Origin: an uncultured Muribaculaceae bacterium | GTDB lineage: Bacteria; Bacteroidota; Bacteroidia; Bacteroidales; UBA932 | Direction: 5' to 3' | Assembly: GCA_964475015.1 (NCBI GenBank) | Contig: CAYYVA010000002.1 | Coordinates: forward strand, 26,221-90,220 | Length of the DNA stretch: 64,000 nt | In this document: positions 20,118-55,256 of the stretch, in pieces | Layout of the letters: each line of letters starts with the position of its first letter | How positions within the stretch are numbered: position 1 is the first letter of the stretch | The notes under the pieces: model-generated | The model's input: the letters and a program-made list of their open reading frames with translations, nothing else | The model's database searches: none | What the model was told of the DNA's origin: nothing | Position numbers and translations under genes: made by a program

Positions 20118-20579
<462 letters not shown>

Positions 20580-20584
20580 TTTAT

Positions 20585-20711
20585 CGTTGTCCTTTTTTAC
20601 AAAAGGCTGAAAGATAAGACCTTAGAAAAAACAGGAGTGATGGATGACCTTCACTCCTGTTTTTTAATTATCACATTATGAGGTTATTGTAAAAAAGGAC
20701 AACGTAAAAAA
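20585..20711. repeat. repeat pair A: 18-bp inverted repeat cgttgtccttttttacaa / ttgtaaaaaaggacaacg flanking a bidirectional terminator
   Basis: Arms at 20585-20602 and 20687-20704; the right copy extends to 20720. It belongs to the same family as 31081-31215. Confidence 0.85.
20626..20665. terminator. bidirectional rho-independent terminator
   Basis: A-run, stem acaggagtga / tcactcctgt, then a T-run. It lies between the convergent atpK and S24-like genes. Confidence 0.7.
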
Positions 20712-21148
20712 ATAAAAAGCAAATACCTCCGTACCGGACGGAAGAAGTGCCATAATCCGGAGAGGAGTTTCCAGCTGAAGGAGCTTGTGGGGATGATGCG
20801 GAAGCTTAAACCGTTGCGGTGCCTGTGGACTTCAACGGCCTTGGCAATGATGTCCTGCCTTGTGCAGGTTTCATGGGATGCATATATTCCGTCTCCTTGG
20901 ATTGTATAAGTGTCTCCATCAATGGAAATGATTCTGTGGAGGACATGGTTTCCCCTGTAGCGGAAGAGGACTGTATCAAGTTTCTGTAGGGTTGTGTCAG
21001 GTGTTACGGCAGAAAGGAGCACCTTGTCTTTCCCGTTGCGGATGAATGGGAACATTGAAGTCCCTTTCAATGGGATGAGGACAGAGTTGCCTTGGGAGAG
21101 TTCCTGCTCTACCTGCCGGAAGTATATGTCATTTGCAATCTGTTTCAT
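20684..21148 (-). CDS. S24/S26-type (LexA / signal-peptidase-like) serine peptidase domain protein
   Basis: 154 aa with a GTSMFPF motif (the GxSMxP nucleophile region). There is no HTH domain. The last ~11 codons (LFIFLRCPFLQ) are encoded by repeat copy 20686-20718. ATGA overlap with the upstream gene. Confidence 0.6.
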   Translation of the reverse strand: MKQIANDIYFRQVEQELSQGNSVLIPLKGTSMFPFIRNGKDKVLLSAVTPDTTLQKLDTVLFRYRGNHVLHRIISIDGDTYTIQGDGIYASHETCTRQDIIAKAVEVHRHRNGLSFRIIPTSSFSWKLLSGLWHFFRPVRRYLLFIFLRCPFLQ

Positions 21149-22008
21149 TTGGCACCCAGTACTGTTTTGAATGACAGTTCAGCTGCTGCCGCATCAGGAA
21201 GGCATTCCAAGTGGTAGCAAGGGACTACTGCGAGTATTTCTGAGAGAGTACAGCTGATATGCGAGTAGATCCTTTCGTCATAGGCAAATTCTGGCGGGCA
21301 GGATGGATGCAGGGCAGCAAATCCTTTTATTACGTGCAGTTTCTGAATCTTATTATATGGTGCCTGGGACAGCCTCACACACCCTGTCAAAGGGTATCTT
21401 TCCGGCCTGTAGCAAGGTGTCTTGCCGCTCCAGGGGCTTCCATAAGCCCAAGGAGTACCATCTATTACACGTACAATTGGGCTGTCATCATTCAAAAGGG
21501 AGGCTCCCGGGATATTCTCTCTCCATAATCTCGTATGTGTGCTTTTTCCCGTTCCGCTTTCCCCAAGGAAAATTACCGCCCTGCCATCAGAAACAATGCA
21601 GCTGCTGTGGATTGCCACCGTACCGTGCCTGTAGGTCATAAGCCCGAAACCCACCCAAAGGGCAAACCTTACAAGCCTTACAGAGAGGTTCCCGTGCAGA
21701 AATACCTTGTCATCACCCTCATTGCACCAAAGGAGGAGCTGCTCCTCATCAGCCGGCTTCTGCCTGAGGAAAAAGCCGGTGGAAGTGATTCCAAACTCTC
21801 CGAGCACATCCTCAAATTCAAATGAATATTGCACCCCGGCAAGTTTTGGCAATTCCCCGGAATAGTAAAAAGAAAACTCCTCTGAGGCTTCCTGCCGGGC
21901 AAATGGCCTGAATCCTGCAATGGAATCAAGCACACCGCACAATTCTGTTCCATGCACGGCAAATTCATGGTCTGCAATCCTATATCTTCTCGTCTCCATT
22001 CTCCTCAA
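21145..22008 (-). CDS. HPr-kinase-like / PEPCK-like P-loop protein
   Basis: 287 aa with the P-loop FLGESGTGKSTHT followed by LLNDD, resembling the HprK C-terminal domain. Confidence 0.55.
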   Translation of the reverse strand: MRRMETRRYRIADHEFAVHGTELCGVLDSIAGFRPFARQEASEEFSFYYSGELPKLAGVQYSFEFEDVLGEFGITSTGFFLRQKPADEEQLLLWCNEGDDKVFLHGNLSVRLVRFALWVGFGLMTYRHGTVAIHSSCIVSDGRAVIFLGESGTGKSTHTRLWRENIPGASLLNDDSPIVRVIDGTPWAYGSPWSGKTPCYRPERYPLTGCVRLSQAPYNKIQKLHVIKGFAALHPSCPPEFAYDERIYSHISCTLSEILAVVPCYHLECLPDAAAAELSFKTVLGAK

Positions 22009-23617
22009 GATTTATTATCCTGCTGCAATAAGAGAGGGTACTCTCCCTGTGGGCAATTGAAAGTATTGTAAGCCCCTCACACTCATCCCTCAATTTATCC
22101 AGCATCATATTAATTTCCTTTTCAGTTGCATTATCCAATGCGGAGGTGGCCTCATCCAGCAGAAGCACAGATGCCCCCTTGTACAGGGCCCTTGCTATCC
22201 CAATCCTCTGCTTTTGTCCTCCCGACAGCTTGCCGCCCGATTCCCCCAGGGTTGCATCAATTCCCCCCTCAAGGGAAGCTGCCCAATCCTTCAGGGAAAC
22301 CATTTCAAGGATCTTGTGGATCCTGGCCCTGTCGAGAAGAGGATATCCCAAAGCAATGTTTTCTGCGAGGGTGCCATTGAAGATGAAGACCTCCTGCGGA
22401 ACATAACCGATCTGGGAGAGCCATGATTTCCTGTTGCCGGGATGCAAAGGGGTGTCATCTACCAGAACTTCACCGGTTGAGGGCTTAAGGAATCCCAGGA
22501 TAAGGTTGAAGAGGGTTGTCTTGCCAACTCCGCTGTATCCGCTGAAGCCCACATATTCCCCCTTGTCTATGGTAAAGTCTGCAAATTCAATAGGCTGGTC
22601 ATTATATTTGAAGGTTAGTCCCCTACCCTTTATGCAGGTATTGAAACTTAACTTTTCCTCATCTGGTTCTGCCTGGTCCGATACTTCCCTCATCCCCTCC
22701 TCAATGGTCTCCAGGGAAGGCAATGAATTCTGGATCTGTGTGTAACCTCCAAGGATACCCCTCACTGCCGGGAGGAGCCTGAAGGCAGCAACTGCAAAAA
22801 GGCCAATGAGCATGCCGGCATTATTGCCGCCCATAATTACCATAACGGCCAGACCTATTATCACTGCAGCCTCTGAGAGGAATATGGGAAATTTCTGGAT
22901 TGTGATAATCTTTATCCTGTTCTCGCTCACTTTATCAACCCCTTCAAGGAAACTCTTCTGTAGCTGCGGGAATGCACCGTTTACCTCAAGTTCCTGGTAT
23001 CCGCGGAAAGTGTCGGCCACAATTCTGGCCTGTTGTCTCTTTGCATGAAATTCTTCCCTGCCATATTCAGCGGCCTTGTTCCTGATGAAAAAGATGTAGA
23101 ATACAATGAATGGGATGAAGCAGATGTAGAGCACCGCTATTGTCCTCCAGTCATAGATGAGCAGGGCTATTGAGACCAGAATTATCAGGAGACCGTCGCC
23201 TGCCATTCTGAGCATTGGGGAAAGGATTCCCTCGCTGAAAGTGTAGGACATATAGTTTACGGCATGCCCCAGGTTACTGTAGCCCTGTTCCCTGATGTAC
23301 AGGAGACCGTTGTTGTAATACCTGAAGTAGAGGCTGAAGCTCAGTCTCTTGTATAGGGAAAGAAGATATCTGCTCTGGTATCTGCCGAACAAAGTTGAAA
23401 GGAGGCTCTTGATTACTATTACAGTAAAGGCAAATATTGCAAAATAAACTGCAGCCTTTCTATTTTCTCCCCCTTCAAGGAGATAATATAGGACCGGGAG
23501 CAATGAGGCCAGACCAATGAAATCAAGCAGGGAATTGATGAAGACAGTGCATGCCACTTTCAACCCCTTCTTCTTTTCACTGGGAAGCAAAAGATTTATG
23601 ATTCTACGGTATATCAT
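21980..23617 (-). CDS. ABC exporter, fused permease and ATPase
   Basis: Start moved to MIYRRIINLL (ATG 23617-23615, forming an ATGA overlap with the upstream stop). Walker A is GYSGVGKTT, the signature is LSGGQKQR and Walker B is LLLDEATSALD. Confidence 0.85.
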   Translation of the reverse strand: MIYRRIINLLLPSEKKKGLKVACTVFINSLLDFIGLASLLPVLYYLLEGGENRKAAVYFAIFAFTVIVIKSLLSTLFGRYQSRYLLSLYKRLSFSLYFRYYNNGLLYIREQGYSNLGHAVNYMSYTFSEGILSPMLRMAGDGLLIILVSIALLIYDWRTIAVLYICFIPFIVFYIFFIRNKAAEYGREEFHAKRQQARIVADTFRGYQELEVNGAFPQLQKSFLEGVDKVSENRIKIITIQKFPIFLSEAAVIIGLAVMVIMGGNNAGMLIGLFAVAAFRLLPAVRGILGGYTQIQNSLPSLETIEEGMREVSDQAEPDEEKLSFNTCIKGRGLTFKYNDQPIEFADFTIDKGEYVGFSGYSGVGKTTLFNLILGFLKPSTGEVLVDDTPLHPGNRKSWLSQIGYVPQEVFIFNGTLAENIALGYPLLDRARIHKILEMVSLKDWAASLEGGIDATLGESGGKLSGGQKQRIGIARALYKGASVLLLDEATSALDNATEKEINMMLDKLRDECEGLTILSIAHRESTLSYCSRIINLEENGDEKI

Positions 23618-24735
23618 TTCTCTCCACGGGTAAGGATTGTTGCAGGAAATCTCAGATGCCAGATTATTGACTGGCGGAGCAGGTACCACCTTGAGGCTCC
23701 GAGGGTATATTCTCGGAGTCTGCTTGAATGTATAACCCTTATGAACTTGTAGAATACTACAGCTATAGGGTTACTGTAAGGAACTTTTGTCTTGTATTTG
23801 GGATGTAACATCTCCTGGAGCATAAGCTCTGAAAGCTCCTTATAATCCTGCGGCAGCCTGCTTATGTCCACATCTGTACCCAGATACTTGTTGCATAGGT
23901 GTGTGAATGCTGCAATTGACCTGAGGAAGGACGGTTCTGTAATTTCATCGGGAAGATGAATGCCGTTCCTCTTGATATGGTTTGCCCAATCATACAGATG
24001 ATGCAGGGCCAACCCGGCTCCAAAATGCTGGAATGAGTGGTAAGCCAGGAATAGTGTGTTGAACCTTGCAGATGGTACAGGTATGCTGCACTCCCCATCC
24101 AGAAGGGTTGCCTTCTGTGGCTCAAGCACCTTGAAGAGGATATTATTGAGCTGGGTGAGGAATTTGGGATTTACCTCAATGTTTACAAACCATTTGTGAT
24201 TCTCAACCGGTATCCCCTTGAAATAGAAATTGCTGTGCTTCTCAGAATGGCTGTAATCAACCTCAATCCCCTGCTGGGCCATAAGCTCGTTGGCAAGCTT
24301 GTTCGCATAGTCATGGGACATTTTTGAGATGTCTGCAGAGTATGTGTAGATATCAATGTCTCCCCCTTCCCTATGAGACGGCTTGTTATAGGAAGATGCC
24401 AGCCCAACACCCTTCATCTGCACCACTTCTATTCCATTCTTCTGATAGAAATCCAATAGCTCTGCAGCTGTCCTGCAATACCTTTGGTGCTTAGCCTCAT
24501 ACTTCTCCACATTCAATGCCCACTGGAACTTCAGCTGCTTGGACGGATGCAGTTCCTTGGGGAGAAGCATCAGACCGTCCCAAGCAAGCGCCAGCACCCC
24601 ATGCCTTGCCGCAGTATCATAGCATTCCTGCCATTCTGCAGGTGTTGCCTGCCGGAAACAATCCTGCTGCGGCACCTCATTGTGCAGGGATCCCTTCAAG
24701 AGGGCAAACAATATTAGATCTCCTTTTACAAGCAT
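23614..24735 (-). CDS. nucleotidyltransferase family protein (PF14907-like 'uncharacterised NTase')
   Basis: 373 aa with ...MKGVGLASSY..PSHREGGDIDIYTY..., the typical GD[IL]D motif of this family. Confidence 0.6.
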   Translation of the reverse strand: MLVKGDLILFALLKGSLHNEVPQQDCFRQATPAEWQECYDTAARHGVLALAWDGLMLLPKELHPSKQLKFQWALNVEKYEAKHQRYCRTAAELLDFYQKNGIEVVQMKGVGLASSYNKPSHREGGDIDIYTYSADISKMSHDYANKLANELMAQQGIEVDYSHSEKHSNFYFKGIPVENHKWFVNIEVNPKFLTQLNNILFKVLEPQKATLLDGECSIPVPSARFNTLFLAYHSFQHFGAGLALHHLYDWANHIKRNGIHLPDEITEPSFLRSIAAFTHLCNKYLGTDVDISRLPQDYKELSELMLQEMLHPKYKTKVPYSNPIAVVFYKFIRVIHSSRLREYTLGASRWYLLRQSIIWHLRFPATILTRGEK

Positions 24736-24755
24736 GGATTACAATCAATTGTATG

Positions 24756-24763
24756 CAAATATA
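24756..24763 (-). promoter_or_regulatory. candidate internal -7 box TATATTTG between btuB-like and the NTase gene
   Basis: The minus strand reads TATATTTG, 20 nt upstream of the ATG at 24735. Confidence 0.35.
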
Positions 24764-24770
24764 GTAACAA

Positions 24771-26840
24771 TCATCTGAACTTCGGCTTCACCCCTATGAA
24801 CAGTTCGAAATTTGTTCCCGGCATGGGACGGCTCAGTACAGAAAGATAATCTTCGTCAAAGAGGTTGTTCACCGTACCCTTGAGGGATATTTCAGCAAAA
24901 CTGAAATCCAGAATCCTTTCCAGTGTGATGTTGCTCATATAGTAGCTTGGCAATTTGCCAGAGAGGGAAATGTCGTTGCTGGACATTGTGTATCTGGGGC
25001 TGTAATGGCACCATTTATAAAGGAATGACCAGTTTCTCCAGTATAGTCTGCCGTTTACAGTTGCCGAATACTCAGGTACATACGGGAGTTGTTTACCTAC
25101 AGATTTGTCTGCAGGGCTAACAGGTTCCCCCTCGTTGATTGAAGGTGTCCAGGAGAGGGTTCCCTGAAGATCAAGCTTCCACTGTGGAGAAAACACAACA
25201 GAAAATTCACCGTTCCCTTCCACACCGTAGGCATGTACCCTCTTGATATTGCGGGGTGAGAAGAATCCTTTGGTTGTCGGGAGCCATATAATCCAGTTAT
25301 CTATGTATGAATCAAACCAGGAGGCTCCGGCTTTTATGGCACACTTCTCCCCCATTTTCACCTCCATGCTCAGGCCAGCATCATAAGTAAACCCCTCCTC
25401 TGGCTTCAGCTGCGGGTTACCTCCTGGAAGGAAGTACATATCATTAAGGGTTGGATAGCGGTAGTTACTTGAAACTGAAGCTTTTGCCACAAGATTCAGT
25501 TTTTCAGAAAGAACTCCATCAAGGAATAGTGCCGGAATTAGTGGTGTCCACACCTCCCCATACATCTCCTCCCTCAGCACAACAGATACCCCAATCCTCT
25601 CCAAAGGGCGCCATTTTGCAGATATGCTTCCCGACAGTTCCACTCTTCCCTTGTCATACCCAACTACAGCCTTGTTCCCCTCCTGCAGGATAATGTTCTT
25701 GTCTGCACTCTCCACAAAATGTTGGTGAAGGGAGAGATTCCCCGTAAAATACCACTCCTTCTTGGGTGTATATTCGCCGTTTACCTGCCCGTAGATGGTA
25801 TTCACCTTACTCCTGGAACGGGTCATTGGGGTAAGGATTCCATTACCGGCATCCCTTTTATAATCATAAGCCATCCAGGTATTTATATACCCTGCCTTGG
25901 CTCCTCCTTTCCATTTTTCTGCAAAATGGTCCCAGGTGAGGATACTCCTGAGAGTATGCTCTCGCTGCCGGTTCTCAAAATCTGTATCCTCAGCATAATC
26001 TGTAGTGAGCATCGCCAATTCCCTGTTGGAATTTATATACCACAGGTTCATCCCAAAGCGGTCCCCTTTACCGGTATTGTAATAGGCCTCCTGCAGGAAA
26101 TGCATATCCTTATAGGCCCCGCTGCGGTTCCTCTCCACCGGATAGTACTGCCCAACCAGCTTGTTGTCCTCATATATGTTCTCCTTTTTATCATGGTTAA
26201 TATACTTATAGTCATTTGGAGATGAAGAATATACAAACCTGGTAGATGTCTGCCACCTCTCATTTCCCCAGCTGAGCCTCAGGAACTCATCATAGGTGCT
26301 GAACGAGCCTATTCCTTGAATATACTGTAGTCCGAACCCCTCCTGCTGTGCAGGTTTTGTGGAGAGCTTGATGGCACCGCCGAGCCCTCCTCCAGTTTCG
26401 TTTACGGAAGAGGTTCCATGCAGCAGCTGGGCATCATCAATGAAATAGGAAGGTATGGTTGAAAAATCAGTCATTCCCAGCATGGGACTGTTGATTTTCA
26501 TGTCATTCCATGTAACCTGGGTATGTGAAGGGGATGTACCCCTGAAAGAAACTGTTGAGAGGGTTGCCCTGCCATAGCTTTTAACAAATACCGGAGCATT
26601 GTAGGTGAGTACATCTGCCATTGAGAGTGAAATGTTCTCCTTTAGCTCCAGAGAATCAAAGGCTGTCTTCTGTATACCTATCTCCTTCATTGGGCGCTTG
26701 GCAACCACACTCACCTCATCTAACCTGAAGTGCCATTTATGGGTTGTATCCCTCTCCTGGGCAAATATTCCTCTTCCCGACAAGATTATGAGCATTGCCA
26801 ACAAAAACTGTCGGGATACTGATGTACAAATATATTTCAT
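24771..26840 (-). CDS. btuB: TonB-dependent receptor, BtuB-like
   Basis: Start at MKYICTS (ATG 26840). It has plug and barrel regions and a terminal F. It is the fourth gene behind a cobalamin riboswitch and is adjacent to a beta-propeller lipoprotein, as in Bacteroides B12 loci. Confidence 0.7.
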   Translation of the reverse strand: MKYICTSVSRQFLLAMLIILSGRGIFAQERDTTHKWHFRLDEVSVVAKRPMKEIGIQKTAFDSLELKENISLSMADVLTYNAPVFVKSYGRATLSTVSFRGTSPSHTQVTWNDMKINSPMLGMTDFSTIPSYFIDDAQLLHGTSSVNETGGGLGGAIKLSTKPAQQEGFGLQYIQGIGSFSTYDEFLRLSWGNERWQTSTRFVYSSSPNDYKYINHDKKENIYEDNKLVGQYYPVERNRSGAYKDMHFLQEAYYNTGKGDRFGMNLWYINSNRELAMLTTDYAEDTDFENRQREHTLRSILTWDHFAEKWKGGAKAGYINTWMAYDYKRDAGNGILTPMTRSRSKVNTIYGQVNGEYTPKKEWYFTGNLSLHQHFVESADKNIILQEGNKAVVGYDKGRVELSGSISAKWRPLERIGVSVVLREEMYGEVWTPLIPALFLDGVLSEKLNLVAKASVSSNYRYPTLNDMYFLPGGNPQLKPEEGFTYDAGLSMEVKMGEKCAIKAGASWFDSYIDNWIIWLPTTKGFFSPRNIKRVHAYGVEGNGEFSVVFSPQWKLDLQGTLSWTPSINEGEPVSPADKSVGKQLPYVPEYSATVNGRLYWRNWSFLYKWCHYSPRYTMSSNDISLSGKLPSYYMSNITLERILDFSFAEISLKGTVNNLFDEDYLSVLSRPMPGTNFELFIGVKPKFR

Positions 26841-26853
26841 GATTCTGATCAAA

Positions 26854-27927
26854 TTATTTCCAGCAGAATGCACCTGGAATAATACCTACATAAAAACTGT
26901 CAAGCTTCTCCCCTTTTGCAGAGTATCTGAGAATCATCCCCTGCTGCTGATAATCAATGGCATCTGCAATATACACATCTCCATTATAAGGGGAAACTGT
27001 AAGGCCGTAATAGATAGTGCCTGCCGCATTGAGGAAAGGCTCATCAGGAAGATTCTCAGCATCAACTGACATCTCCCAGATATCATCATTTATCCAGTAG
27101 AGCATGCTCCTGTCTCCGTTGAGCTGAACCTCAGAAGGTGCATCCCCGAACTTGAACCTGAACTGCTTCTCAATAGTGAATGTTTCTGCATCAATGCAGT
27201 ACAGGGAGGGTGCTTCATGGCCATAAGGGCTTCCCTCATAGCCGCCGTCTGTAACTGTCCACATCTTGTTGTTCTTATCCAGTACAAGGGAGGTTGGCTG
27301 TATTCCCACAACAAGTTCATCTGCAACAGTATCAGTTTCAGTATCAATCTTTAGTATCCTGTTCTGGTATGACCAGCAGTTTACATAAACATATTTCCCG
27401 TACTGTACCATCTGTTCCGTGGATCCCTGCTCCATTGTCATGTTGGGGCATTGGATATAGCCGGTAATCTGGAAAGTCATTGGATTGATAATAAATATCC
27501 TGTTGTCCCAGATCTGGGTGACATACGCCTTTTCATCTGAGAGGAAATGGATATATCTCGGCGAGGTGAAATTGGTAATCCTTCCAATTTCCTTGCAGGT
27601 ATTTATATCTACTGCAAATATCACATGGGAATTGTTAACCACAATCCATCCTATGGAATCCCTTATGGACATGGACTGCGCCACATCTCCCAGCTTCATC
27701 TGGTTGACACGGTAAAACACCTCATTTTCAATGGTTTTATCATCGGGATTATAAAAAGAGAGGGTAGCATTTCCATACTGGAAATTTCCCTCATTGGTAA
27801 TGTAAAGGCCATGGGGAGGGAAATCAATTCTTTCCTGTTCTCCCAAGTCCCATTTCATGCAAGCAGTTGCTCCAGCCAACAGGAGCAACTGCAGAACATA
27901 CTTAAAAATAACCAATATTATATGCAT
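26854..27927 (-). CDS. YncE-like beta-propeller lipoprotein, BtuG-like candidate
   Basis: 357 aa with a lipobox LLLAGATAC and repeated propeller-like blades. It sits immediately upstream of the btuB-like gene. Confidence 0.5.
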   Translation of the reverse strand: MHIILVIFKYVLQLLLLAGATACMKWDLGEQERIDFPPHGLYITNEGNFQYGNATLSFYNPDDKTIENEVFYRVNQMKLGDVAQSMSIRDSIGWIVVNNSHVIFAVDINTCKEIGRITNFTSPRYIHFLSDEKAYVTQIWDNRIFIINPMTFQITGYIQCPNMTMEQGSTEQMVQYGKYVYVNCWSYQNRILKIDTETDTVADELVVGIQPTSLVLDKNNKMWTVTDGGYEGSPYGHEAPSLYCIDAETFTIEKQFRFKFGDAPSEVQLNGDRSMLYWINDDIWEMSVDAENLPDEPFLNAAGTIYYGLTVSPYNGDVYIADAIDYQQQGMILRYSAKGEKLDSFYVGIIPGAFCWK

Positions 27928-28883
27928 CAGTTGGCTTGATTTAACATACTGTAATCATAAAATCCGAATACCTCAGTTGAGTTCTCTCCCAACCAGCCGC
28001 TCTTTGTATTGAGGGCTGTCTGAACCTTTATGAAATCAACGAACTTCAGTTCAACCACATTTCCATTTGAATCTGTAGCATTTGAAAAATCAAGGAAATT
28101 ACATGACCTGAGTTCCTCTGAGGTACCGCTGTAAAAATCAGTAGGGCTATAGTTATCTGCATAACCCCAGTCATACTCCGGCTGTACCCAATATGTGCCG
28201 TTTCCAGACTGGTCATAATTCATGGCATGAAGGCAGGTGCCTTTCAAGGTATAGCTGTCCTCCTTTATCCATAACGGATAATAATACTCCTGGTTGTGAT
28301 AGGTTTTCAGATAGTCTATCTCACCACTGGCACCCGTATTATCAGTCCATTGTACAGGCATTCCGGGCCCTGACGGCCTGTAATAGGTAACCTCATAGTT
28401 TTGGATTGTCCCTTCGTTGCCTGTCTCACACCCCTTAAGTTCATACCAGGTGTCGTCGGGAAGGGAATTGCCGTTTTCATCCTGCATTACCCATACAATT
28501 CCCGGCTCAGAAGAGCCCTTGAAAGAGTTGCCCCTTATTGCAAGGTCATAGCCGGGAACATTATCTATGCTGTGGTCAAACCCAACTGTAAGATACCCTC
28601 CAAAACCTCCAAGAGAAACGAACAGATTGTCCTGCATCCTTTTGTGTGCATAATCTGCCGCCGCCTGGGGAGTTGTCTCATTTCCTGTAAAACCACCTGT
28701 CTTTGTTTCATTGATAAACTGCCCCGGAGCAGGCATATACTCATAAACCTTGTTCCACGCAGCTTGAGAAGTTTCAGTCTTGGCCCTGTAAAAATCATCT
28801 ACAGTGGTACCGATCACCTCATCCTTGTTACAGGATGAGGCAACCAATACTACCGCCATCATATATAAAAATTGTTTTTTCAT
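27927..28883 (-). CDS. cell-surface lipoprotein of B12 locus
   Basis: Start at MKKQFLYMMAVVLVASSC (lipobox), ATG at 28883. There is a 1-nt overlap with the downstream start. Confidence 0.5.
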   Translation of the reverse strand: MKKQFLYMMAVVLVASSCNKDEVIGTTVDDFYRAKTETSQAAWNKVYEYMPAPGQFINETKTGGFTGNETTPQAAADYAHKRMQDNLFVSLGGFGGYLTVGFDHSIDNVPGYDLAIRGNSFKGSSEPGIVWVMQDENGNSLPDDTWYELKGCETGNEGTIQNYEVTYYRPSGPGMPVQWTDNTGASGEIDYLKTYHNQEYYYPLWIKEDSYTLKGTCLHAMNYDQSGNGTYWVQPEYDWGYADNYSPTDFYSGTSEELRSCNFLDFSNATDSNGNVVELKFVDFIKVQTALNTKSGWLGENSTEVFGFYDYSMLNQAN

Positions 28884-28896
28884 CTGATATGAATTG

Positions 28897-30486
28897 TTAG
28901 AAACGGACAGCGAGGTCATCATACGCAAAATATGAAGGTTGGCTATATCCATAGCTATTATCACTAGTACCTAGGATGTTGAATTCAACCTTTACAACCG
29001 CTCCCAGACTGCTCAAATCCCATTTTGTCCATTCTGTGACAATGTTGTCAGGGCCATTGCACAGATAGATATCACAGGTTGTTGCATTACCATCCAGATC
29101 GTAACCGGTTGCGGTGACCTTACTCCAATCATTAGGTCCAATCTTGACGGTAAGGCCATTACCATCCATATAGCAGCTGATTGCATAACATGAATTGTTT
29201 ACGTACATATGGTCAATCACTCTTTCAACATTATCTTTAAAATAAATGTATGGAAGCACTTCTGTCTTATTATAGTCTGAACCATCAATATAGCCATAGT
29301 GGATTCCAAAGTTTTTAGAATTGCCATTTCCACCGGTCAGAGTTTCTCCATACACTTCACCGGTTCCATAGACACACTGCTGATGCTCATAGGTGCCATA
29401 TGTAGTATAATCTTCAGATGCATAATGAGATACTATATGACCTCCTCCCCAATACACTCTTGAACCATAGTTTACAGGGAACTCTGAGGCAATGAATGTA
29501 TTATTGTAATCATACCAATTATAATCACAACCTCTCATTTCACCATTGAATCCCATATCTCCATATGTAAGCGGCCCTCCATATTCAGGAGAATCAATCA
29601 AAGCAGTCCAAACTGAAACGAAGTGGTCATAATATGAATCTGTAGAGCTTTCATATCCTGTAATTGAATACCTGTCAAACATTGTATGGTTATCTTCAAA
29701 TGTAAGGGTACGGAGTACATATTCTTTCAGAGCAACACCTGAAAGGTCTGCATCTATCTTATATGTCTTTCCGGCTTCAAGTGTCTTTGAAGAGAGTGTC
29801 TGCTCGTAATATCTTGTATCATTACCAATTGCAAACTGATATGTGACCGTTGCACTTGATACGGTTCCAGGATATACAACCATGACTGCGTCAGCTCCGG
29901 TTGTAGGTGATGAGATGTTGGTCTTGAGCTCTATAATGCTCCTTCCGTCAGTAACTGTAAAACCTGAACCGCCAAAAGTGGCGCTTCCTGCAATTATGTC
30001 TTTACCTGAATGAATCCTGATTGATTTAAGGACAGCACCGGATGGGAGTGACTTTAAATTGAACCAAATATATGCAGTAGCATGATTCAATACAAAAGTG
30101 CCGTCTTGAATCTCTGCATATCCAAAATCACCATTCTCACCCAAAGATTTTGATGCATCCTGCACCACAGGAATCCAGGCAGCAGTTGGTGATTCACCGG
30201 TCATATTATAATATACTGTACCTGCCGGCTCAGATGTGAATGTGAATGTTGCACCGCCATGAGAATGAATTTCAGCAGCAGAACTCTCTTTAGTTCCGCT
30301 CCATATCTTGTCTCCTTCACTCCATACAAATGGTATAGAGTTGGCTCCTGGAGTGCCAAAATCTGTTTTTGTTAGGGTATTTGAATAACCTGTAATGGTA
30401 TAACTGTCGGGAAGAATGATTGACTCTTCTTTGGTGCAGCCCATAAGAATTAGAGCAAGCGCCAAAACAAATAATATCTTTTTCAT
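28897..30486 (-). CDS. surface lipoprotein with a DUF4465-like C-terminal domain, BtuH-like candidate
   Basis: 529 aa with lipobox LILMGC. The C-terminal pattern LTFED...YW.GG...W.KWDLSSLGAVVKVEFNILGTSDNSYGYSQPSYFAYDDLAV is DUF4465-like. It is the first gene after the riboswitch. Confidence 0.5.
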   Translation of the reverse strand: MKKILFVLALALILMGCTKEESIILPDSYTITGYSNTLTKTDFGTPGANSIPFVWSEGDKIWSGTKESSAAEIHSHGGATFTFTSEPAGTVYYNMTGESPTAAWIPVVQDASKSLGENGDFGYAEIQDGTFVLNHATAYIWFNLKSLPSGAVLKSIRIHSGKDIIAGSATFGGSGFTVTDGRSIIELKTNISSPTTGADAVMVVYPGTVSSATVTYQFAIGNDTRYYEQTLSSKTLEAGKTYKIDADLSGVALKEYVLRTLTFEDNHTMFDRYSITGYESSTDSYYDHFVSVWTALIDSPEYGGPLTYGDMGFNGEMRGCDYNWYDYNNTFIASEFPVNYGSRVYWGGGHIVSHYASEDYTTYGTYEHQQCVYGTGEVYGETLTGGNGNSKNFGIHYGYIDGSDYNKTEVLPYIYFKDNVERVIDHMYVNNSCYAISCYMDGNGLTVKIGPNDWSKVTATGYDLDGNATTCDIYLCNGPDNIVTEWTKWDLSSLGAVVKVEFNILGTSDNSYGYSQPSYFAYDDLAVRF

Positions 30487-30625
30487 GATTCTGATTGTTA
30501 AGTTATTGAATAATGGCCCATGGATCTAAAGGTGATACACCTGATCCGCCGCTTGTTGCAAATCCTTTTTCAACTTCAATTTCAATTACCTAAACTTCAG
30601 GTTGTACATAGATTGGTTTTTCCAT

Positions 30626-30688
30626 AAAAAAACGTGTTTTAAGTTGTTAATGTTACCTGAACCGGGGTACAGTAAAACTCAAAACACG
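30626..30688 (-). terminator. riboswitch expression-platform terminator
   Basis: On the minus strand: stem cgtgttttgagtt / aacttaaaacacg (1 mismatch) followed by U7. Confidence 0.5.
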
Positions 30689-30852
30689 CCTTTACGGATA
30701 CTTATATGCTTAGTAAGAATGTAGGAAAAGTCAATTGTAAATGATACAATACGACAAGCCGGCTGACCTACTCTCCTCTCTGCAATTTGTAATACGGATA
30801 AAAACTGTTTTGATTTTCACCCGTAACCTGCAGGCTCAATCGTATAATGCAA

Positions 30853-31032
30853 AGTGGCAGGTCTTCTGACTTATTCCATTTGCCGAGCCTTCCCAGCGCC
30901 AAGCGCCAGTGGCAAAGAGTCCGGCAAATTCAAATTCCTTGAGGAATGGAATTCACAGCAACAGGTATTGTCCCGGATTCACACCGGATTCCCTATTCTC
31001 CCGCTGGAGAGTAATGCTCCATTAGGAACCAT
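30853..31032 (-). promoter_or_regulatory. cobalamin (B12) riboswitch
   Basis: The minus strand reads ...AATAGGGAATCCGGTGTGAATCCGGGAC...GCCACTG...GGGAAGGC...AGTCAGAAGACCTGCCA. These are the conserved core and B12-box of the cobalamin riboswitch class. Confidence 0.85.
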
Positions 31033-31040
31033 TTGCAATG

Positions 31041-31072
31041 CAAAGCTAAACAACATATTTTTTAATTGCAAA
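31041..31072 (-). promoter_or_regulatory. candidate promoter of the B12 operon (-33 TTTG, -7 TAGCTTTG)
   Basis: Minus strand: TTTG, 19 nt, TAGCTTTG, ending about 7 nt before the start of the riboswitch. Confidence 0.4.
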
Positions 31073-31080
31073 TTATTTTA

Positions 31081-31215
31081 TTTTTACGTTGTCCTTTTTT
31101 ACAATTACCTGATTGTTAGAAGTATATAAATTCAAAACATTTGAAATACACTCAAGCGTTATATATAACCGCCAATAATTCAACAGATTAGAAAAAAGGA
31201 CAACGTAAAAAATAA
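31081..31215. repeat. repeat pair B: inverted copies of the same AAAAAAGGACAACG-core repeat, 87 bp apart
   Basis: 31081-31105 is the exact reverse complement of 20686-20710 (25/25). 31192-31212 is an exact direct copy of 20691-20711 (21/21). Confidence 0.9.
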
Positions 31216-31223
31216 AAAATAGC

Positions 31224-31231
31224 TAAATTTG
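31224..31231 (+). promoter_or_regulatory. -7 box TAAATTTG for the PqqD gene
   Basis: TAnnTTTG, 25 nt upstream of the ATG at 31257. Confidence 0.4.
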
Positions 31232-31256
31232 CCCGGTAATAAATAATTTTACAATT

Positions 31257-31529
31257 ATGAAAATAGACAGCAAATACATAATGAGGGAGATAGCCGGTGA
31301 GAAGGTTGTGGTAAGACAAGGGACCCACGGTGTGGATATGACCAGGATAATTTCCTTCAATGAAAGTGCCGCGGCACTCTGGGAGGAGTTCTGCAAGAAG
31401 GAGTTTACAGCAGAGGATGCAGCGGGATTTTTGAAGGATAGGTATGGGATAAATAAGGAAATGGCTGCCAATGATGCCAATTTGTGGATAAACAAACTGA
31501 CAGATTGCGGTGCAATATTAAATTCTTAA
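31257..31529 (+). CDS. PqqD family protein (RiPP recognition element type)
   Basis: 90 aa: KYIMREIAGEKVVV...ISFNESAAALWEEF...FTAEDAAGFLKDRYGI..EMAANDANLWINKL, the typical PqqD/RRE pattern. Confidence 0.75.
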   Translation: MKIDSKYIMREIAGEKVVVRQGTHGVDMTRIISFNESAAALWEEFCKKEFTAEDAAGFLKDRYGINKEMAANDANLWINKLTDCGAILNS

Positions 31530-46563: not shown

Positions 46564-46670
46564 GAGATGAAATAAATAAACCAGGGACCTCATTCGACGG
46601 TTACGAGTTATCGCGAAGCGATGACGAAGTAGAGGAGACTGCGTCGTCCCTGGTTTATTTATTTCATCTC
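46564..46670. repeat. perfect 25-bp inverted repeat with a 57-nt spacer between convergent genes
   Basis: gagatgaaataaataaaccagggac (46564-46588) pairs with gtccctggtttatttatttcatctc (46646-46670). Confidence 0.85.
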
Positions 46671-53966: not shown

Positions 53967-55256
53967 TTATATCACTTCTTCGCAGATCTCCCCAATCTTG
54001 TTCTTGTCGTAAGGCCTCTCAACCCGTATGTAGTTGCCGGTATAGCCGTACATCATGCCCCCTTTCTGGGTTGATTCAAAGAGTACCTGCTGTGTCGTTC
54101 CCTTGTGGCGGGAAACATATTCTTCATGCAGCTGGTCTGAAAGCGCGGTAAGGGCCTCCACTCTGGCTGTCTTGGTTGCCTCATGCACCTGGTTTGGCAT
54201 TGCTGCTGCAGGGGTATTTGCCCGTCGGGAATAAGGGAATACATGAATGAATGCGGGCTTGATTGTCTCCTTGAGGAAAGTGTAGCATTTCTGGAACTCC
54301 TCATCCGTCTCGCCTGGAAAGCCTACTATCACATCAATACCAAAGAAAACATCCCCCATAATGCGGCGTACCATGGCAATCTTCTCTGCAAACATGGTAG
54401 TATTGTAGCGGCGGCGCATCACCTTAAGCACCTCATCCGAACCGCACTGGAGCGGAATATGGAAATGGTTCTGGAACTTGGTGCCGCTGGCAATCCACTC
54501 GATGATATCCTCCCTGAGCAGGTTAGGCTCAATTGATGAAATCCTGTAGCGCTCTATTCCCGGCACCTCATTGAGAGCCTTGAGCAGATCAAGGAAATCC
54601 TCTCCCGTAGTGCGTCCGAAATCACCTGTATTCACACCTGTGAGGACAACCTCCTTTATACCTTTTGCCGCAATTGCCTCTGCTTCCTTTACCAATGTGA
54701 CAATCGGGAGGTTACGGCTCTTGCCCCTGGCAAGGGGAATTGTACAATAAGAACAATGGTAGTTACAGCCGTCCTGCACCTTCAGGAACGAGCGGGTACG
54801 CTCTCCATGCGAAAAGGCAGGGAAAATAGTCTCCACCTCATTGATGGCACAGGAATAAGACCTGGCTGTCCCAAGTTTTGAAGGAATTTCACTCACCAGC
54901 TGGAATACATCTCCCTTGCGGTCTGCACCCACTACAAGGTCAACCCCCTCTATCTCCATAATCTCCTGAGGCTTCAGCTGTGCATAACAGCCTGTAACCG
55001 CAATTACCGCATCCGGATTCTGCTTGTGCAGCTTGCGGATTGCCTGGCGGCACTTCTTGTCTGCATGCTCCGTTACGCTGCAGGTATTGATTACATATAT
55101 GTCTGCCGGCTTGCTCTGTGCAACCCTTTCGTAACCGTTGTCTATGAACTGCTGGGCTATTGTAGAGGTTTCAGAGAAGTTAAGCTTGCAACCTAATGTT
55201 ACAAAGGCTATGGTCTTTACGTTGTCCTTTTGTATATTTAATTGATTTTCAGCCAT
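53967..55256 (-). CDS. mtaB: tRNA t6A37 methylthiotransferase
   Basis: 429 aa with a UPF0004 N-domain (TLGCKLNFSE), the radical SAM motif CNYHCSYC and a TRAM-like C-terminus. Confidence 0.8.
   Translation of the reverse strand: MAENQLNIQKDNVKTIAFVTLGCKLNFSETSTIAQQFIDNGYERVAQSKPADIYVINTCSVTEHADKKCRQAIRKLHKQNPDAVIAVTGCYAQLKPQEIMEIEGVDLVVGADRKGDVFQLVSEIPSKLGTARSYSCAINEVETIFPAFSHGERTRSFLKVQDGCNYHCSYCTIPLARGKSRNLPIVTLVKEAEAIAAKGIKEVVLTGVNTGDFGRTTGEDFLDLLKALNEVPGIERYRISSIEPNLLREDIIEWIASGTKFQNHFHIPLQCGSDEVLKVMRRRYNTTMFAEKIAMVRRIMGDVFFGIDVIVGFPGETDEEFQKCYTFLKETIKPAFIHVFPYSRRANTPAAAMPNQVHEATKTARVEALTALSDQLHEEYVSRHKGTTQQVLFESTQKGGMMYGYTGNYIRVERPYDKNKIGEICEEVI

Follow-up and report, generated by a model that had tools for sequence, protein, structure and literature searches.

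To our knowledge, small dispersed palindromic repeats such as REP/BIME/REPIN sequences, Correia elements and MITEs have been studied in depth in Proteobacteria, while accounts from gut Bacteroidales are scarce. Correia elements of Neisseria (CREE/NEMIS) are 100-160 bp long, have terminal inverted repeats of ~26 bp and TA-flanked ends, sit near promoters or terminators in intergenic regions, carry an IHF site and influence transcription; the interior is conserved among their copies, and they make a TA duplication. An IHF site also lies between the REPs of E. coli BIME-1/RIP. Bacteroidales invertons of the Mpi and Tsr types are invertible promoters, asymmetric and promoter-carrying, and Mpi of Bacteroides fragilis is a global invertase working at dispersed sites. 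Integron attC sites, with ends of the form RYYYAAC...GTTRRRY, belong to cassette arrays served by an integron integrase.

REP dimers with length-conserved, structured spacers, situated near gene 3' ends and supplying stop codons, have been documented (PMC3733652), and a Bacteroidetes-specific subclass of REP-associated tyrosine transposases (RAYTs), subclass 2.6, is associated with 'atypical secondary structures' (PMC6006769). The MITEs of Porphyromonas gingivalis (BrickBuilt) have identifiable parent insertion sequences, target-site duplications and conserved interiors, and are larger than the element described here (PMC4596501).

Here we analyse repeats at two sites in a 64-kb stretch of DNA, referred to as the window throughout. 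A preliminary description had offered three explanations for them: that they serve a large inversion as recombination sites, that they are operators bound by one common regulator, or that they are the ends of a MITE-like element family. The last proved essentially right, as the inverted pairs end a ~125-bp unit that recurs at no fewer than 19 unrelated intergenic sites. We consider it likely that the repeats in the window are the arms of a short, dispersed, non-coding element that is present there in two independent copies; an enzyme acting in trans would have spread it, and the host would have retained it. In our best reading, the element represents a new repeat family of the REPIN/BIME/Correia-like kind, that is, of the known class of small dispersed palindromic repeats.

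Results

Two elements in the window

Pattern searches of the window found AAAAAAGGACAACG four times exactly and once with one mismatch, where 0.03 occurrences are expected by chance for a 14-mer with up to one mismatch; for a 20-mer with up to three mismatches, the expectation is 0.00. Sequence reading and pattern search bore out the repeat relations noted before: 31081-31105 is the exact reverse complement of 20686-20710 (25 nt), 20691-20711 is identical to 31192-31212 (21 nt), and 20687-20704 reverse-complements 20585-20602 (18 nt). With a repeat finder, the arms extend to 41 nt at 88% identity (20678-20718 versus 31073-31113), and an inverted repeat of 34 nt at 85% was found inside the second site. 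The four repeats bound two separate ~125-bp elements, A (20582-20707) and B (31084-31208), as their terminal inverted repeats. The perfect 25-bp inverted repeat that had appeared to bracket 10.4 kb is formed by the two arms that face each other, the right one of element A and the left one of element B; it is a by-product of two neighbouring element copies and not a DNA switch. Element A comprises the following features:

20582..20707, no strand: element A, full copy, between the convergent V-ATPase K gene and a 154-aa gene
20580..20602, plus strand: left arm, TTTATCGTTGTCCTTTTTTACAA, beginning 1 nt past the stop codon of the K gene (20577-20579)
20626..20665, no strand: central A6-hairpin-T6, CAGGAGTG...CACTCCTG, from sequence and predicted fold
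20687..20709, minus strand: right arm, overlapping the final codons and stop codon of the 154-aa gene

In element A, the distance from core to core is 120 bp, the single-strand fold has a z-score of -11.1, and our covariance model R1 scores 82 bits (E ~1e-15; full model, both strands). Its centre looks like a bidirectional intrinsic terminator, as judged from the sequence; a simple terminator scan made no call there, probably because the loop exceeds the 8-nt limit of the scan. The 154-aa gene (20684-21148, minus strand), previously called S24-like, indeed has its 3' end supplied by the repeat: its last 11 codons (LFIFLRCPFLQ*) consist of A-run and arm sequence, and it stops inside the repeat. 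The gene weakly matches signal peptidase I (S26), below the curated cut-off, and a Pfam search with it gave no hit. Element B and its surroundings are as follows:

31084..31208, no strand: element B, full copy, between a divergent cobalamin-riboswitch operon and the PqqD gene
31084..31104, plus strand: left arm, TTACGTTGTCCTTTTTTACAA, from sequence reading and pattern search
31188..31208, minus strand: right arm, with 2 mismatches to the 20-mer consensus
31073..31220, no strand: possible full extent including T-run and A-run extensions, from the 34-nt inverted repeat
31224..31231, plus strand: canonical Bacteroidetes -7 box of the predicted PqqD promoter, TAAATTTG, 19 nt beyond the right arm
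30839..31048, minus strand: cobalamin riboswitch heading the B12-uptake operon, outside the element (Rfam RF00174, 89.7 bits)
55216..55252, plus strand: truncated copy of one arm and a hairpin-1-like stretch, forming the first ~13 codons of mtaB

Element B measures 119 bp from core to core and is AT-rich and weakly structured inside (fold z = -7.5; R1 scores of 81 and 59 bits). The PqqD -7 box lies outside the element and is also present in L010, a relative that lacks element B. The covariance model recovers exactly two full copies in the window, which also holds one fragment. This fragment is the partial copy reported earlier at the 5' end of mtaB (53967-55256, minus strand), where 55216-55237 has 2 mismatches to the 20-mer and a stretch of 54 nt is 72% identical to the left side of element B by repeat finder. 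It could instead be a chance coding match, since L054 also encodes QKDNV across an arm-like 18-mer.

A dispersed family in a narrow clade

Elements A and B belong to a multi-copy family found at unrelated intergenic sites, with a fixed length and a conserved, covarying cloverleaf fold. The family unit consists of TWW-CGTTGTCCTTTTKTACAA, ~83 nt and TTGTAMAAAAGGACAACG-WWA, nearly always 119 bp from core to core; in order, it comprises a 21-nt arm (TWW-CGTTGTCCTTTTKTACAA), followed by a small hairpin, the A-run/hairpin/T-run at the centre, another small hairpin and an arm complementary to the first. The conserved core spans ~125 bp, or ~150 bp with A/T-run extensions, and holds no ORF.

An arm-pair scan of 185,579 species genomes returned 19 loci, in only four metagenome-assembled genomes (MAGs): 12 in RGIG4631 and 4, 2 and 1 in three MAGs of Candidatus Egerieisoma. 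The length from core to core is exactly 119 bp in 14 of these 19 elements and 109-120 bp in the remainder. The covariance model added one degenerate copy at the MAG loci, bringing RGIG4631 to 12 exact copies and one degenerate one. Across ~150 kb of DNA flanking the MAG loci, arms occurred solely in pairs and never alone. Within the uncultured gut Bacteroidales, the family is specific to one narrow clade, represented by MAGs labelled Candidatus Egerieisoma and Bacteroidales RGIG4631 and by ruminant and ibex gut metagenomes. A viral scan yielded chance single arms only, and a plasmid search with one full element (that of L017) gave zero matches. Copy number is low, with 13 in the richest MAG and two per 64 kb in the window. 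A generic REP-like repeat at hundreds of unrelated intergenic sites, which the preliminary description had named as the case against its own interpretation, is largely what we see, although the copies number in the tens, as opposed to the hundreds of classical REP families.

Fold, covariation and interiors

As a single strand, the element folds into a cloverleaf made of an arm-arm stem, two small hairpins and the central A-run/hairpin/T-run, with z-scores from -10 to -20 in 15 of 22 copies. This fold is supported by covariation. In alignment A1, 73.6% of cells are paired, compared to 41-50% when partners are slid, and the covariation score of 0.249, versus ~0.1, was reached by none of 500 shuffles; arm position 16/111, for example, pairs as G:C in 11 copies and as U:A in another 11. 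The family centre looks, from its sequence, like a bidirectional terminator.

The earlier view of inverted pairs with unrelated interiors holds for the pairs, but not for the interiors, which share architecture, length and a weak consensus: their mean best ungapped identity is 0.47, compared to 0.32 for shuffled interiors. In one paralogue pair within a single genome, the interiors are 71% identical, and those of the orthologues L017 and L032 are 82% identical.

A conserved fold with compensatory changes would form in RNA too, many copies adjoin gene 3' ends, and REPs are known to work at the RNA level (PMC3733652). The unit might be transcribed and act either as a structured 3'-UTR module (arm, hairpin and terminator) or as the gene of a small RNA, where, for example, an RNA-binding protein or RNase would bind. 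We regard this as exceedingly unlikely: an Rfam search with the element gave no match, element scores are nearly equal on both strands, and copies between divergent genes would go untranscribed from known promoters. Moreover, the arm-arm stem could not form in RNA, because the central terminator would end the transcript ahead of the second arm.

Presence and absence among relatives

Presence of the element varies between close relatives, and some paralogues within the same genome are recent. Element B is missing at the orthologous position in L010 and L078, both 98% identical to the window directly beside it; in L010, 24 unrelated nt replace the ~150 nt of its possible full extent. The L001-type haplotype, 96.7% identical as far as the stop codon, has no element A. 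None of the relatives compared offered an empty site that was clean and bore a simple insertion footprint. At the orthologous locus of L015, L017, L032 and L045, the element is present in four of four genomes, with flanks 73-80% identical; arms and length are kept there and the interior is completely turned over. L017 and L045 are 98-100% identical across the element, compared to an average of ~80% in the surrounding DNA.

Target-site duplications were not detectable at element flanks. The triplets on either side co-vary in a way that prolongs the inverted repeat (TTA/TAA, TAT/ATA, TGA/TCA), unlike direct repeats, and direct matching of flanks is limited to palindromic TA or AT, in 14 of 25 copies.

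These comparisons also bear on the proposal that the 25-bp inverted repeat (20686-20710/31081-31105) is a site for programmed inversion of the 10.4-kb block of B12-uptake and peptide-export genes, to which we assign a negligible probability. The repeat, perfect over 25 bp and 88% identical over 41 nt, would suffice for rare homologous recombination, and the region is hypervariable: four haplotypes occur from the V-ATPase K gene to PqqD. However, all eight independent contigs across either junction (L003, L005, L006 and L009 at junction A; L011-L013 and L077 at junction B) have the window orientation, and the haplotypes differ by one replacement and one deletion, with no inversion. The deletion in L010, which lacks the block, ends at ~20740 and 30846, inside the block rather than at the repeats. 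The same arms, furthermore, occur at many loci without a partner 10 kb away, and the window encodes no invertase.

On a smaller scale, each inverted pair could be an inverton, with a site-specific recombinase acting in trans, in the manner of Mpi, to flip the ~84-bp interior. Its inverted-repeat architecture is what inverton finders target, and the element A interior of L010 aligns with that of the window far better when reverse-complemented (score 38 versus 19; shuffles at most 6), with arms and flanks collinear. This nevertheless seems very unlikely to us. The 26 elements contain no interior -7 box (TAnnTTTG on either strand), compared to 4.1 +/- 1.9 expected, and since the interior is nearly two-fold symmetric in the manner of a bidirectional terminator, flipping it would change little. 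Orientation is kept among the orthologues L017/L032/L045, L020/L049 and window/L005, leaving L010 as the sole flipped case. As the L010 interior is only ~70% identical to that of the window, although the more distant L005 retains ~96%, replacement by a paralogue is as likely here as inversion. A recombinase is, again, not encoded in the window, though a global invertase may act from a distant locus.

Element sides and neighbouring genes

All copies lie between genes, be these convergent, in tandem or divergent, with gaps of 0-90 bp to the adjacent ORFs, and stop codons adjoin or fall within the arms. The neighbours are unrelated housekeeping genes, among them those for peptidases, an FAD oxidase, HlyD, a SpoU methylase, a redoxin, a ROK kinase, AsnA and V-ATPase; in L026, two copies sit on either side of one peptidase gene. 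Operators of a shared regulator are accordingly unlikely, given that the neighbours are unrelated in function and that every second side of an element is turned towards a gene 3' end, and we rejected operator sites of one regulon, since the sites do not lie upstream of functionally related genes and many are at gene 3' ends.

On sides facing gene starts, a canonical -7 box lies within 45 nt in 12 of 24 cases, compared to none of 26 other sides, and 8 of these 12 boxes start 16-19 nt past the arm. Across 26 elements, the IHF-like consensus WATCARNNNNTTR was counted 12 times, versus 0.64 times in shuffles, and it takes up two fixed subterminal positions. Both observations would suit a boundary module that the host maintains and that is not mobile, and whose arms are a pair of binding sites for a host protein, for instance a nucleoid-associated or insulator protein or a global regulator. 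The 119-bp spacing would then phase the sites, the centre would terminate incoming transcription, and the arms would form the upstream (-33) part of outward promoters. At the L015/L017/L032/L045 locus, the invariance of arms and length despite interior turnover, and the element being the best-conserved stretch, point in the same direction. We consider this reading rather unlikely all the same, as the neighbours have no common function, about half of the sides face gene 3' ends, presence differs between very close strains, recent paralogues within one genome indicate spread by copying, and inspection of the sequence revealed no canonical -33 TTTG in the arm at the distance required.

Discussion

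For the dispersed element that we favour, spread would depend, now or formerly, on an enzyme that recognises the arms in trans. The preferred candidate would be a RAYT, an HUH tyrosine transposase, acting on folded single-stranded DNA; alternatively, a DDE transposase could bind the terminal repeats. We wholly infer this enzyme, since neither a transposase nor a RAYT or recombinase turned up in the window and a regular-expression search found no HUH/Y motif in 341 kb of retrieved DNA; in REP systems, a cognate single-copy RAYT is flanked by the repeats. A parent insertion sequence with the same terminal repeats was likewise absent from the 64-kb window and the relatives' loci examined. Following insertion, the host would retain and shape the element. 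Between convergent genes, its centre is predicted to work as a two-way transcription terminator, and an arm may even provide a gene's last codons and stop codon; between divergent genes, the interior would decay into AT-rich DNA, with arms ending 9-19 nt upstream of putative -7 boxes. The terminator and promoter roles are predictions from sequence.

The invariance of arms and length despite interior turnover exceeds what a decaying selfish element would show and points to selection on the arms and their spacing, for which a purely mobile element does not account. Tentatively, and as a speculation with fairly low chances, the element might be a portable, host-retained 'transcription-unit boundary cassette'. 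Its two-way-terminator centre would drift under retention of the cloverleaf and the 119 bp, its arms would form the upstream half of outward promoters at a fixed 16-19 nt from the -7 box, and a dedicated binding protein, either a domesticated Bacteroidota RAYT or an IHF-like host factor, would keep the arms invariant across species. If so, Bacteroidales would have their first described REPIN-RAYT-type partnership, or protein-bound insulator element.

Among described systems, the element compares with several. With Correia elements it shares size, terminal inverted repeats and intergenic setting, a comparison by function and architecture only, with no similarity in sequence expected; in contrast to them, its interiors differ greatly and its flanks co-vary as an inverted repeat instead of forming a TA duplication. 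The enriched IHF-like motif parallels the IHF site of BIME-1/RIP. Like Bacteroidales invertons, it has ~20-bp inverted repeats around a short segment at dispersed loci, with one orthologue flipped inside, but its interiors are quasi-symmetric and have no -7 box, and the arms share only AACGTA with what we take to be the Mpi consensus, ARACGTWCGT. An integron attC site was considered and rejected: the ends, CGTTGTCC...GGACAACG, have the opposite polarity (GTT...AAC) to the attC consensus, the copies are single and dispersed, and no integrase was found.

As in the REP/BIME/REPIN class (E. coli BIME/RIP, Pseudomonas REPINs, GTAG/CGTC dimers; PMC3733652), conserved short inverted arms enclose a less conserved spacer of fixed length. 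The family forms inverted doublets of characteristic spacing that are extragenic and adjoin gene 3' ends, and in REP doublets, too, spacers may hold stem-loops, the single-stranded unit folds into a hairpin, and an extragenic position near gene 3' ends at times supplies a stop codon. The arms have neither the GTAG nor the CGTC tag that REPs conserve at their 5' end (PMC3733652) and, on inspection, carry TWWCG as their tag. An arm by itself (TTGTCC-TTTT-KTACAA) is a weak palindrome of 4-6 pairs, whereas a REP unit is itself an imperfect palindrome, and the three-hairpin cloverleaf with its terminator-like centre is unlike REP doublets. The host, moreover, belongs to the Bacteroidales, where only 'atypical structures' beside subclass 2.6 RAYTs have been reported (PMC6006769). 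With the P. gingivalis MITEs, from the same phylum, the family shares short non-coding copies with terminal inverted repeats at multiple intergenic sites; it is dispersed and multi-copy, with insertion polymorphism between relatives, but the parent insertion sequence, target-site duplications, conserved interiors and larger size of those MITEs are not seen here (PMC4596501).

With its invariant arms, fixed length and fast-evolving but structure-preserving interiors, the family offers a clean case for study, which could reveal what allows such elements to persist and in which ways hosts put them to new use as terminators, gene ends and promoter-proximal DNA. There is also a practical side: pairs of elements make perfect long-range inverted repeats, which can lead PhaseFinder-type inverton or rearrangement finders, as well as human readers, to false switch calls, and assemblers may break contigs at them. 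In the window, the elements mark a hypervariable locus, at which the B12-uptake operon is present in some strains and absent in others.

Elements A and B are two copies of one repeat unit

The window derives from a Bacteroidales chromosome and holds a Bacteroidales small SRP RNA. A pattern search located AAAAAAGGACAACG at 20585(-), 20691(+), 31087(-) and 31192(+), with a chance expectation of 0.03, and a further copy with one mismatch at 55220(-); the 20-mer TACGTTGTCCTTTTKTACAA with up to three mismatches returned the identical five places (0.00 expected by chance). The 25-nt, 21-nt and 18-nt relations among the copies were exact when the sequence was read, and a repeat finder extended the arms to 34-41 nt at 85-88%. 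The four-copy repeat of the preliminary description, together with the relations stated for it, is thus present and non-random. The 25-bp inverted repeat said to bracket a 10.4-kb block is likewise exact, but it is merely the right arm of element A lying opposite the left arm of element B. Because an arm-pair scan shows paired arms at a near-constant spacing, with no single arms in the flanks of its loci, the window's four copies are the four ends of two elements. A search of the window with covariance model R1, built from 26 family members, found exactly two full copies, A and B (82 and 81 bits), and nothing else. Interiors had been called unrelated; their ungapped best-orientation identity averages 0.47, compared to 0.32 in shuffles, which contradicts this. 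The elements lie among the following features:

Element A, 20582-20707: between the V-ATPase K gene and a convergent gene for a 154-aa, weakly S26-like protein
20684-24735, minus strand: downstream part of the riboswitch operon, encoding NTP_transf_5, an ABC exporter, an HprK-related/ScmC-like protein and a weakly S26 signal-peptidase-like protein
Riboswitch operon: DUF4465, unassigned 345-aa ORF, DUF5074, TonB-dependent receptor, NTP_transf_5, ABC exporter, HprK/ScmC-like and 154-aa weakly S26-like genes
30839-31048, minus strand: cobalamin riboswitch, heading this operon
Element B, 31084-31208: between the riboswitch operon and the divergent PqqD-like gene
31178-31190: IHF-like consensus in element B
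31224-31231: TAAATTTG box of the PqqD-like gene, 19 nt past the right arm of B
31257-31529, plus strand: PqqD-like gene, divergent from the riboswitch operon

The genes of the operon's downstream part, taken with the PqqD-like gene, are reminiscent of RiPP-associated PqqD/HprK-related/nucleotidyltransferase cassettes; beneath a cobalamin riboswitch such a set is unusual.

As previously proposed for the 154-aa (S24-like) gene, its end is made of repeat sequence: the last 11 codons and the stop come from element A. Similarly, a truncated element copy supplies the first ~13 codons of mtaB. Here a chance coding match is possible, since QKDNV is likewise encoded across an 18-mer resembling an arm in an unrelated ORF of the fetched contig L054.

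Most copies fold into a conserved cloverleaf

The conserved unit reads T-W-W-CGTTGTCCTTTTKTACAA, interior, TTGTAMAAAAGGACAACG-W-W-A, often with a T-run extending one end and an A-run the opposite end. As single strands, most copies fold into a cloverleaf: the arms pair in a stem of ~21 bp, within which lie two small hairpins and, between them, a long central hairpin with an A-run and a T-run at its sides. Judged by its sequence, the central A-run/hairpin/T-run has the look of a bidirectional intrinsic terminator. Fold z lies between -10 and -20 in 15 of 22 copies; the remainder, element B among them, have AT-rich, weakly structured interiors. With the cloverleaf drawn by hand on the 26-sequence alignment, 73.6% of cells are paired, compared to 41-50% with slid partners, and the covariation score is 0.249 versus about 0.1, a value reached by none of 500 shuffles. 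Changes on both sides occur in all pairs of the central helix and in seven of the eight pairs of each small hairpin. At arm position 16/111, 11 elements have G:C and 11 others U:A, indicating that the two arms of each element co-vary. Interior identity is 71% in one same-genome paralogue pair and 82% between the orthologues L017 and L032, both from MAG contigs.

Two fixed subterminal positions, around 31 and 95 of alignment A1 (which comprises the 26 members), hold 12 occurrences of the IHF-like consensus WATCARNNNNTTR, compared to 0.64 expected; on the right side, the last three bases of the motif are the TTG of the arm. This enrichment is a lead only.

No sign of a large invertible segment

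The arrangement of the repeats had raised the possibility that they serve as recombination sites for a large DNA inversion. We therefore sought contigs whose encoded proteins include exact matches to the V-ATPase K subunit, PqqD or BaxI. Junctions A and B are each covered by four contigs, all in the orientation of the window, and no contig carries a flipped block, so that the 10.4-kb inversion was rejected. Three other haplotypes recovered in this look-up are a replacement or deletions, none an inversion.

Inversion of the interiors alone was a second possibility. In the related contig L010, the interior of element A aligns to that of the window with a score of 38 as reverse complement versus 19 directly (shuffles at most 6), indicating that a flip or a replacement occurred once. 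The L010 interior is only about 70% identical, and the more distant contig L005 keeps the interior nearly unchanged. Other orthologous pairs are collinear, and for a candidate second flip, L015 versus L017, both orientations score within the range of the shuffles. Routine flipping of interiors is thus unproven. The Bacteroidetes -7 promoter box is absent from the elements on both strands (0 versus 4.1 +/- 1.9 expected), which rules out that they are promoter invertons.

Gene context and adjoining promoters

Elements are always intergenic, 0-90 bp from the adjoining ORFs, in convergent, tandem and divergent settings. Their neighbours encode C69 and M28 peptidases, a mechanosensitive channel, an FAD oxidase, HlyD, a SpoU methylase, a redoxin, a ROK kinase and AsnA. 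Such unrelated housekeeping functions are evidence against a regulon, and the suggestion that the repeats are operators of a shared regulator is unlikely to hold. Stop codons often adjoin the core (TAA|CGTTG, TGA|CGTTG) or fall within the arm. The strong central hairpin is found at all four convergent sites, whereas three of four divergent sites carry the degenerate AT-rich type; this split fits selection for terminator function solely where it is required.

On sides facing an outward gene start, a TAnnTTTG box lies within 45 nt in 12 of 24 cases, compared to none of the 26 other sides. In eight of the 12 boxed sides, the box starts 16-19 nt past the arm (e.g. in L015, L017, L027, L032 and L065), so that by position the arm coincides with the place of a -33 element. 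The box itself is not part of the element, as the PqqD box is also present in L010, where element B is missing. In L010, just about 25 nt separate two divergent -7-like boxes, so the place where element B was inserted, or is kept, is exactly the gap between two back-to-back promoters.

Turnover and retention

Contig L010, with flanks 93.6-98% identical to the window, has kept element A; at the B site, 24 unrelated nucleotides stand in place of about 150 nt. Its deletion, from about 20740 to 30846 of the window, has its ends inside the block and away from the repeats. Contig L078 matches the window at 98.7% identity starting 3 nt ahead of the PqqD start codon; the DNA upstream of this point is wholly different, with another cobalamin-riboswitch-like leader, a cobalamin-biosynthesis-like gene and no element. 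The L001-type haplotype shows 96.7% identity up to the K stop codon; beyond it come a plain terminator and then a fimbrial operon, and element A is missing.

The interval from the V-ATPase K stop to the PqqD start (20580-31256) is hypervariable between strains, with flanks 94-99% identical. Four haplotypes occupy it: the riboswitch-controlled B12-uptake/export operon of the window, a fimbrial (DUF3575/DUF5119/Mfa-like) operon, a deletion that spares just the riboswitch and the remnant of a gene, and another kind of cobalamin-riboswitch-like leader, accompanied by a cobalamin-biosynthesis-like gene that directly adjoins PqqD.

In the Bacteroidales MAG RGIG4631, the interiors of three copies, two of them in contig L026 and the third in L028, closely resemble each other, and the L026 pair stands in opposite orientation on either side of a single peptidase gene; both observations are signs of recent copying. 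Around the elements, we found no direct repeat of at least 3 nt at any offset that could represent a target-site duplication; the flanking triplets change in concert, like a continuation of the inverted repeat.

At one orthologous locus, shared by L015 (RGIG4631), L017 (JAZTYE), L032 (JAZNUT) and L045 (metagenome), flanks are 73-80% identical, and each of the four contigs carries an element, 118-119 bp long, whose core arms are identical, even as the L015 interior is unrecognisably different from that of L017. L017 and L045 are 98-100% identical across the element, compared to ~80% on average over the rest of 1.6 kb; the window and L005 are 90.7% identical overall, and element A differs at just three positions. 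Judging by this retention in orthologues, arms, length and fold seem to be under constraint, which exceeds a "selfish and decaying" picture and is the least explained aspect of the family.

Distribution and relation to known repeat classes

We scanned one genome per species (185,579 species) with CGTTGTCCTTTT-N(80-110)-AAAAGGACAACG; the arm-pair pattern of the family, mismatches allowed, is TWWCGTTGTCCTTTT-N(80-110)-AAAAGGACAACGWWA. Only 19 loci in four MAGs were obtained: 12 come from RGIG4631 (roe deer rectum), and the others (4, 2 and 1) from three MAGs that bear the title Candidatus Egerieisoma. The core-to-core length is exactly 119 bp in 14 of the 19 elements (range 109-120). No single arms occur in ~150 kb of flanks around the MAG loci, and a search of the loci with R1 added one degenerate copy, in L026. 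A metagenome scan with one 18-mer arm gave 44 stretches, mostly single chance matches; six loci (L034, L045, L049, L059, L065 and L075) contain a full recognisable element, none with a transposase beside it. Plasmid BLAST with one full element gave no match, and a scan of viral contigs gave just four single arms, as chance matches. Rfam at gathering thresholds, run on the window and four loci, assigned the element to no family, a permissive Rfam search yielded generic hairpin matches only, and a literature search for the arm sequence and for MITE/REP in Bacteroidales found no description of the family.

Solo arms lie 5-6 nt upstream of start codons in contigs L037 (2166-2185, AAAAGGACAACGTCATTATG) and L048 (741-768, AAAAGGACAACGTTACAATG), meaning that truncated elements persist directly 5' of genes. 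Candidatus Egerieisoma, the title of the L014, L017, L020, L023 and L030-L032 records, is filed under Clostridiaceae (Bacillota) in NCBI taxonomy, in conflict with the Bacteroidales hallmarks of the window and the loci (small SRP RNA, TonB-dependent receptors, Mfa fimbriae); we use the genus label as a record title only.

No transposase or recombinase is among the 48 window ORFs annotated by Pfam (64 kb), and regular expressions detected no HUH/Y1 motifs in six frames of 341 kb. An attC/integron origin was rejected for the wrong end polarity and for dispersed single copies without arrays. TIRYT-type terminal repeats were rejected too, their consensus GGGG[AT][CG]A[CG] being unlike the arms. 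The proposal that the repeats are ends of a MITE-like family is borne out insofar as there is a dispersed unit with terminal inverted repeats at 19 loci; unlike classical MITEs, however, the family shows no visible target-site duplication and has no parent insertion sequence in the DNA searched. It differs from REPINs in lacking a GTAG or CGTC tag, with no RAYT in the DNA searched, and from invertons in lacking an internal promoter and, in the window, an invertase.

Its closest analogues are REP doublets (BIMEs, REPINs) and Correia-type MITEs. Some REP doublets have two stem-loops at the ends of a spacer, and they lie within 20 bp of gene 3' ends, sometimes providing stop codons (PMC3733652). 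Quentin et al. describe a RAYT subclass, 2.6, found mostly in Bacteroidetes, with 'atypical secondary structures' on its flanks that recur elsewhere in the genome (PMC6006769). Compared to REP doublets and RAYT systems, the present family has a low copy number, little palindromic character in the single arm, and a cloverleaf fold with a terminator-like core. The best explanation for A and B is that they are neighbouring copies of a structured repeat element of the REPIN/BIME/Correia kind that is new and restricted to one clade; they are neither a 10.4-kb invertible switch nor the operators of a regulon. That such elements form a host-retained boundary cassette, combining a two-way terminator with a promoter-upstream module and bound by a dedicated protein, is a speculative extension that we consider rather unlikely.

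Other features of the window

A TonB-dependent receptor is split into adjacent ORFs (2870-3547 and 3568-5151), with the CarboxypepD_reg and Plug domains in one and the beta-barrel in the other; a frameshift, a pseudogene or an assembly error may account for the split. Between the convergent genes for an FKBP-type isomerase and TamB, at 46564-46670, lies a perfect 25-bp inverted repeat (GAGATGAAATAAATAAACCAGGGAC ... GTCCCTGGTTTATTTATTTCATCTC, arms 57 nt apart) that has no sequence relationship to the element family. Another short repeat, TGTCGGGAAGA, is present in seven copies (2810, 18808, 20074, 26772, 30405, 53085 and 59827) versus 0.05 expected; at 2810, 20074 and 53085 a complementary TCCCGA half precedes it, giving a small hairpin followed by an A-run, and the other four copies lie inside coding regions.
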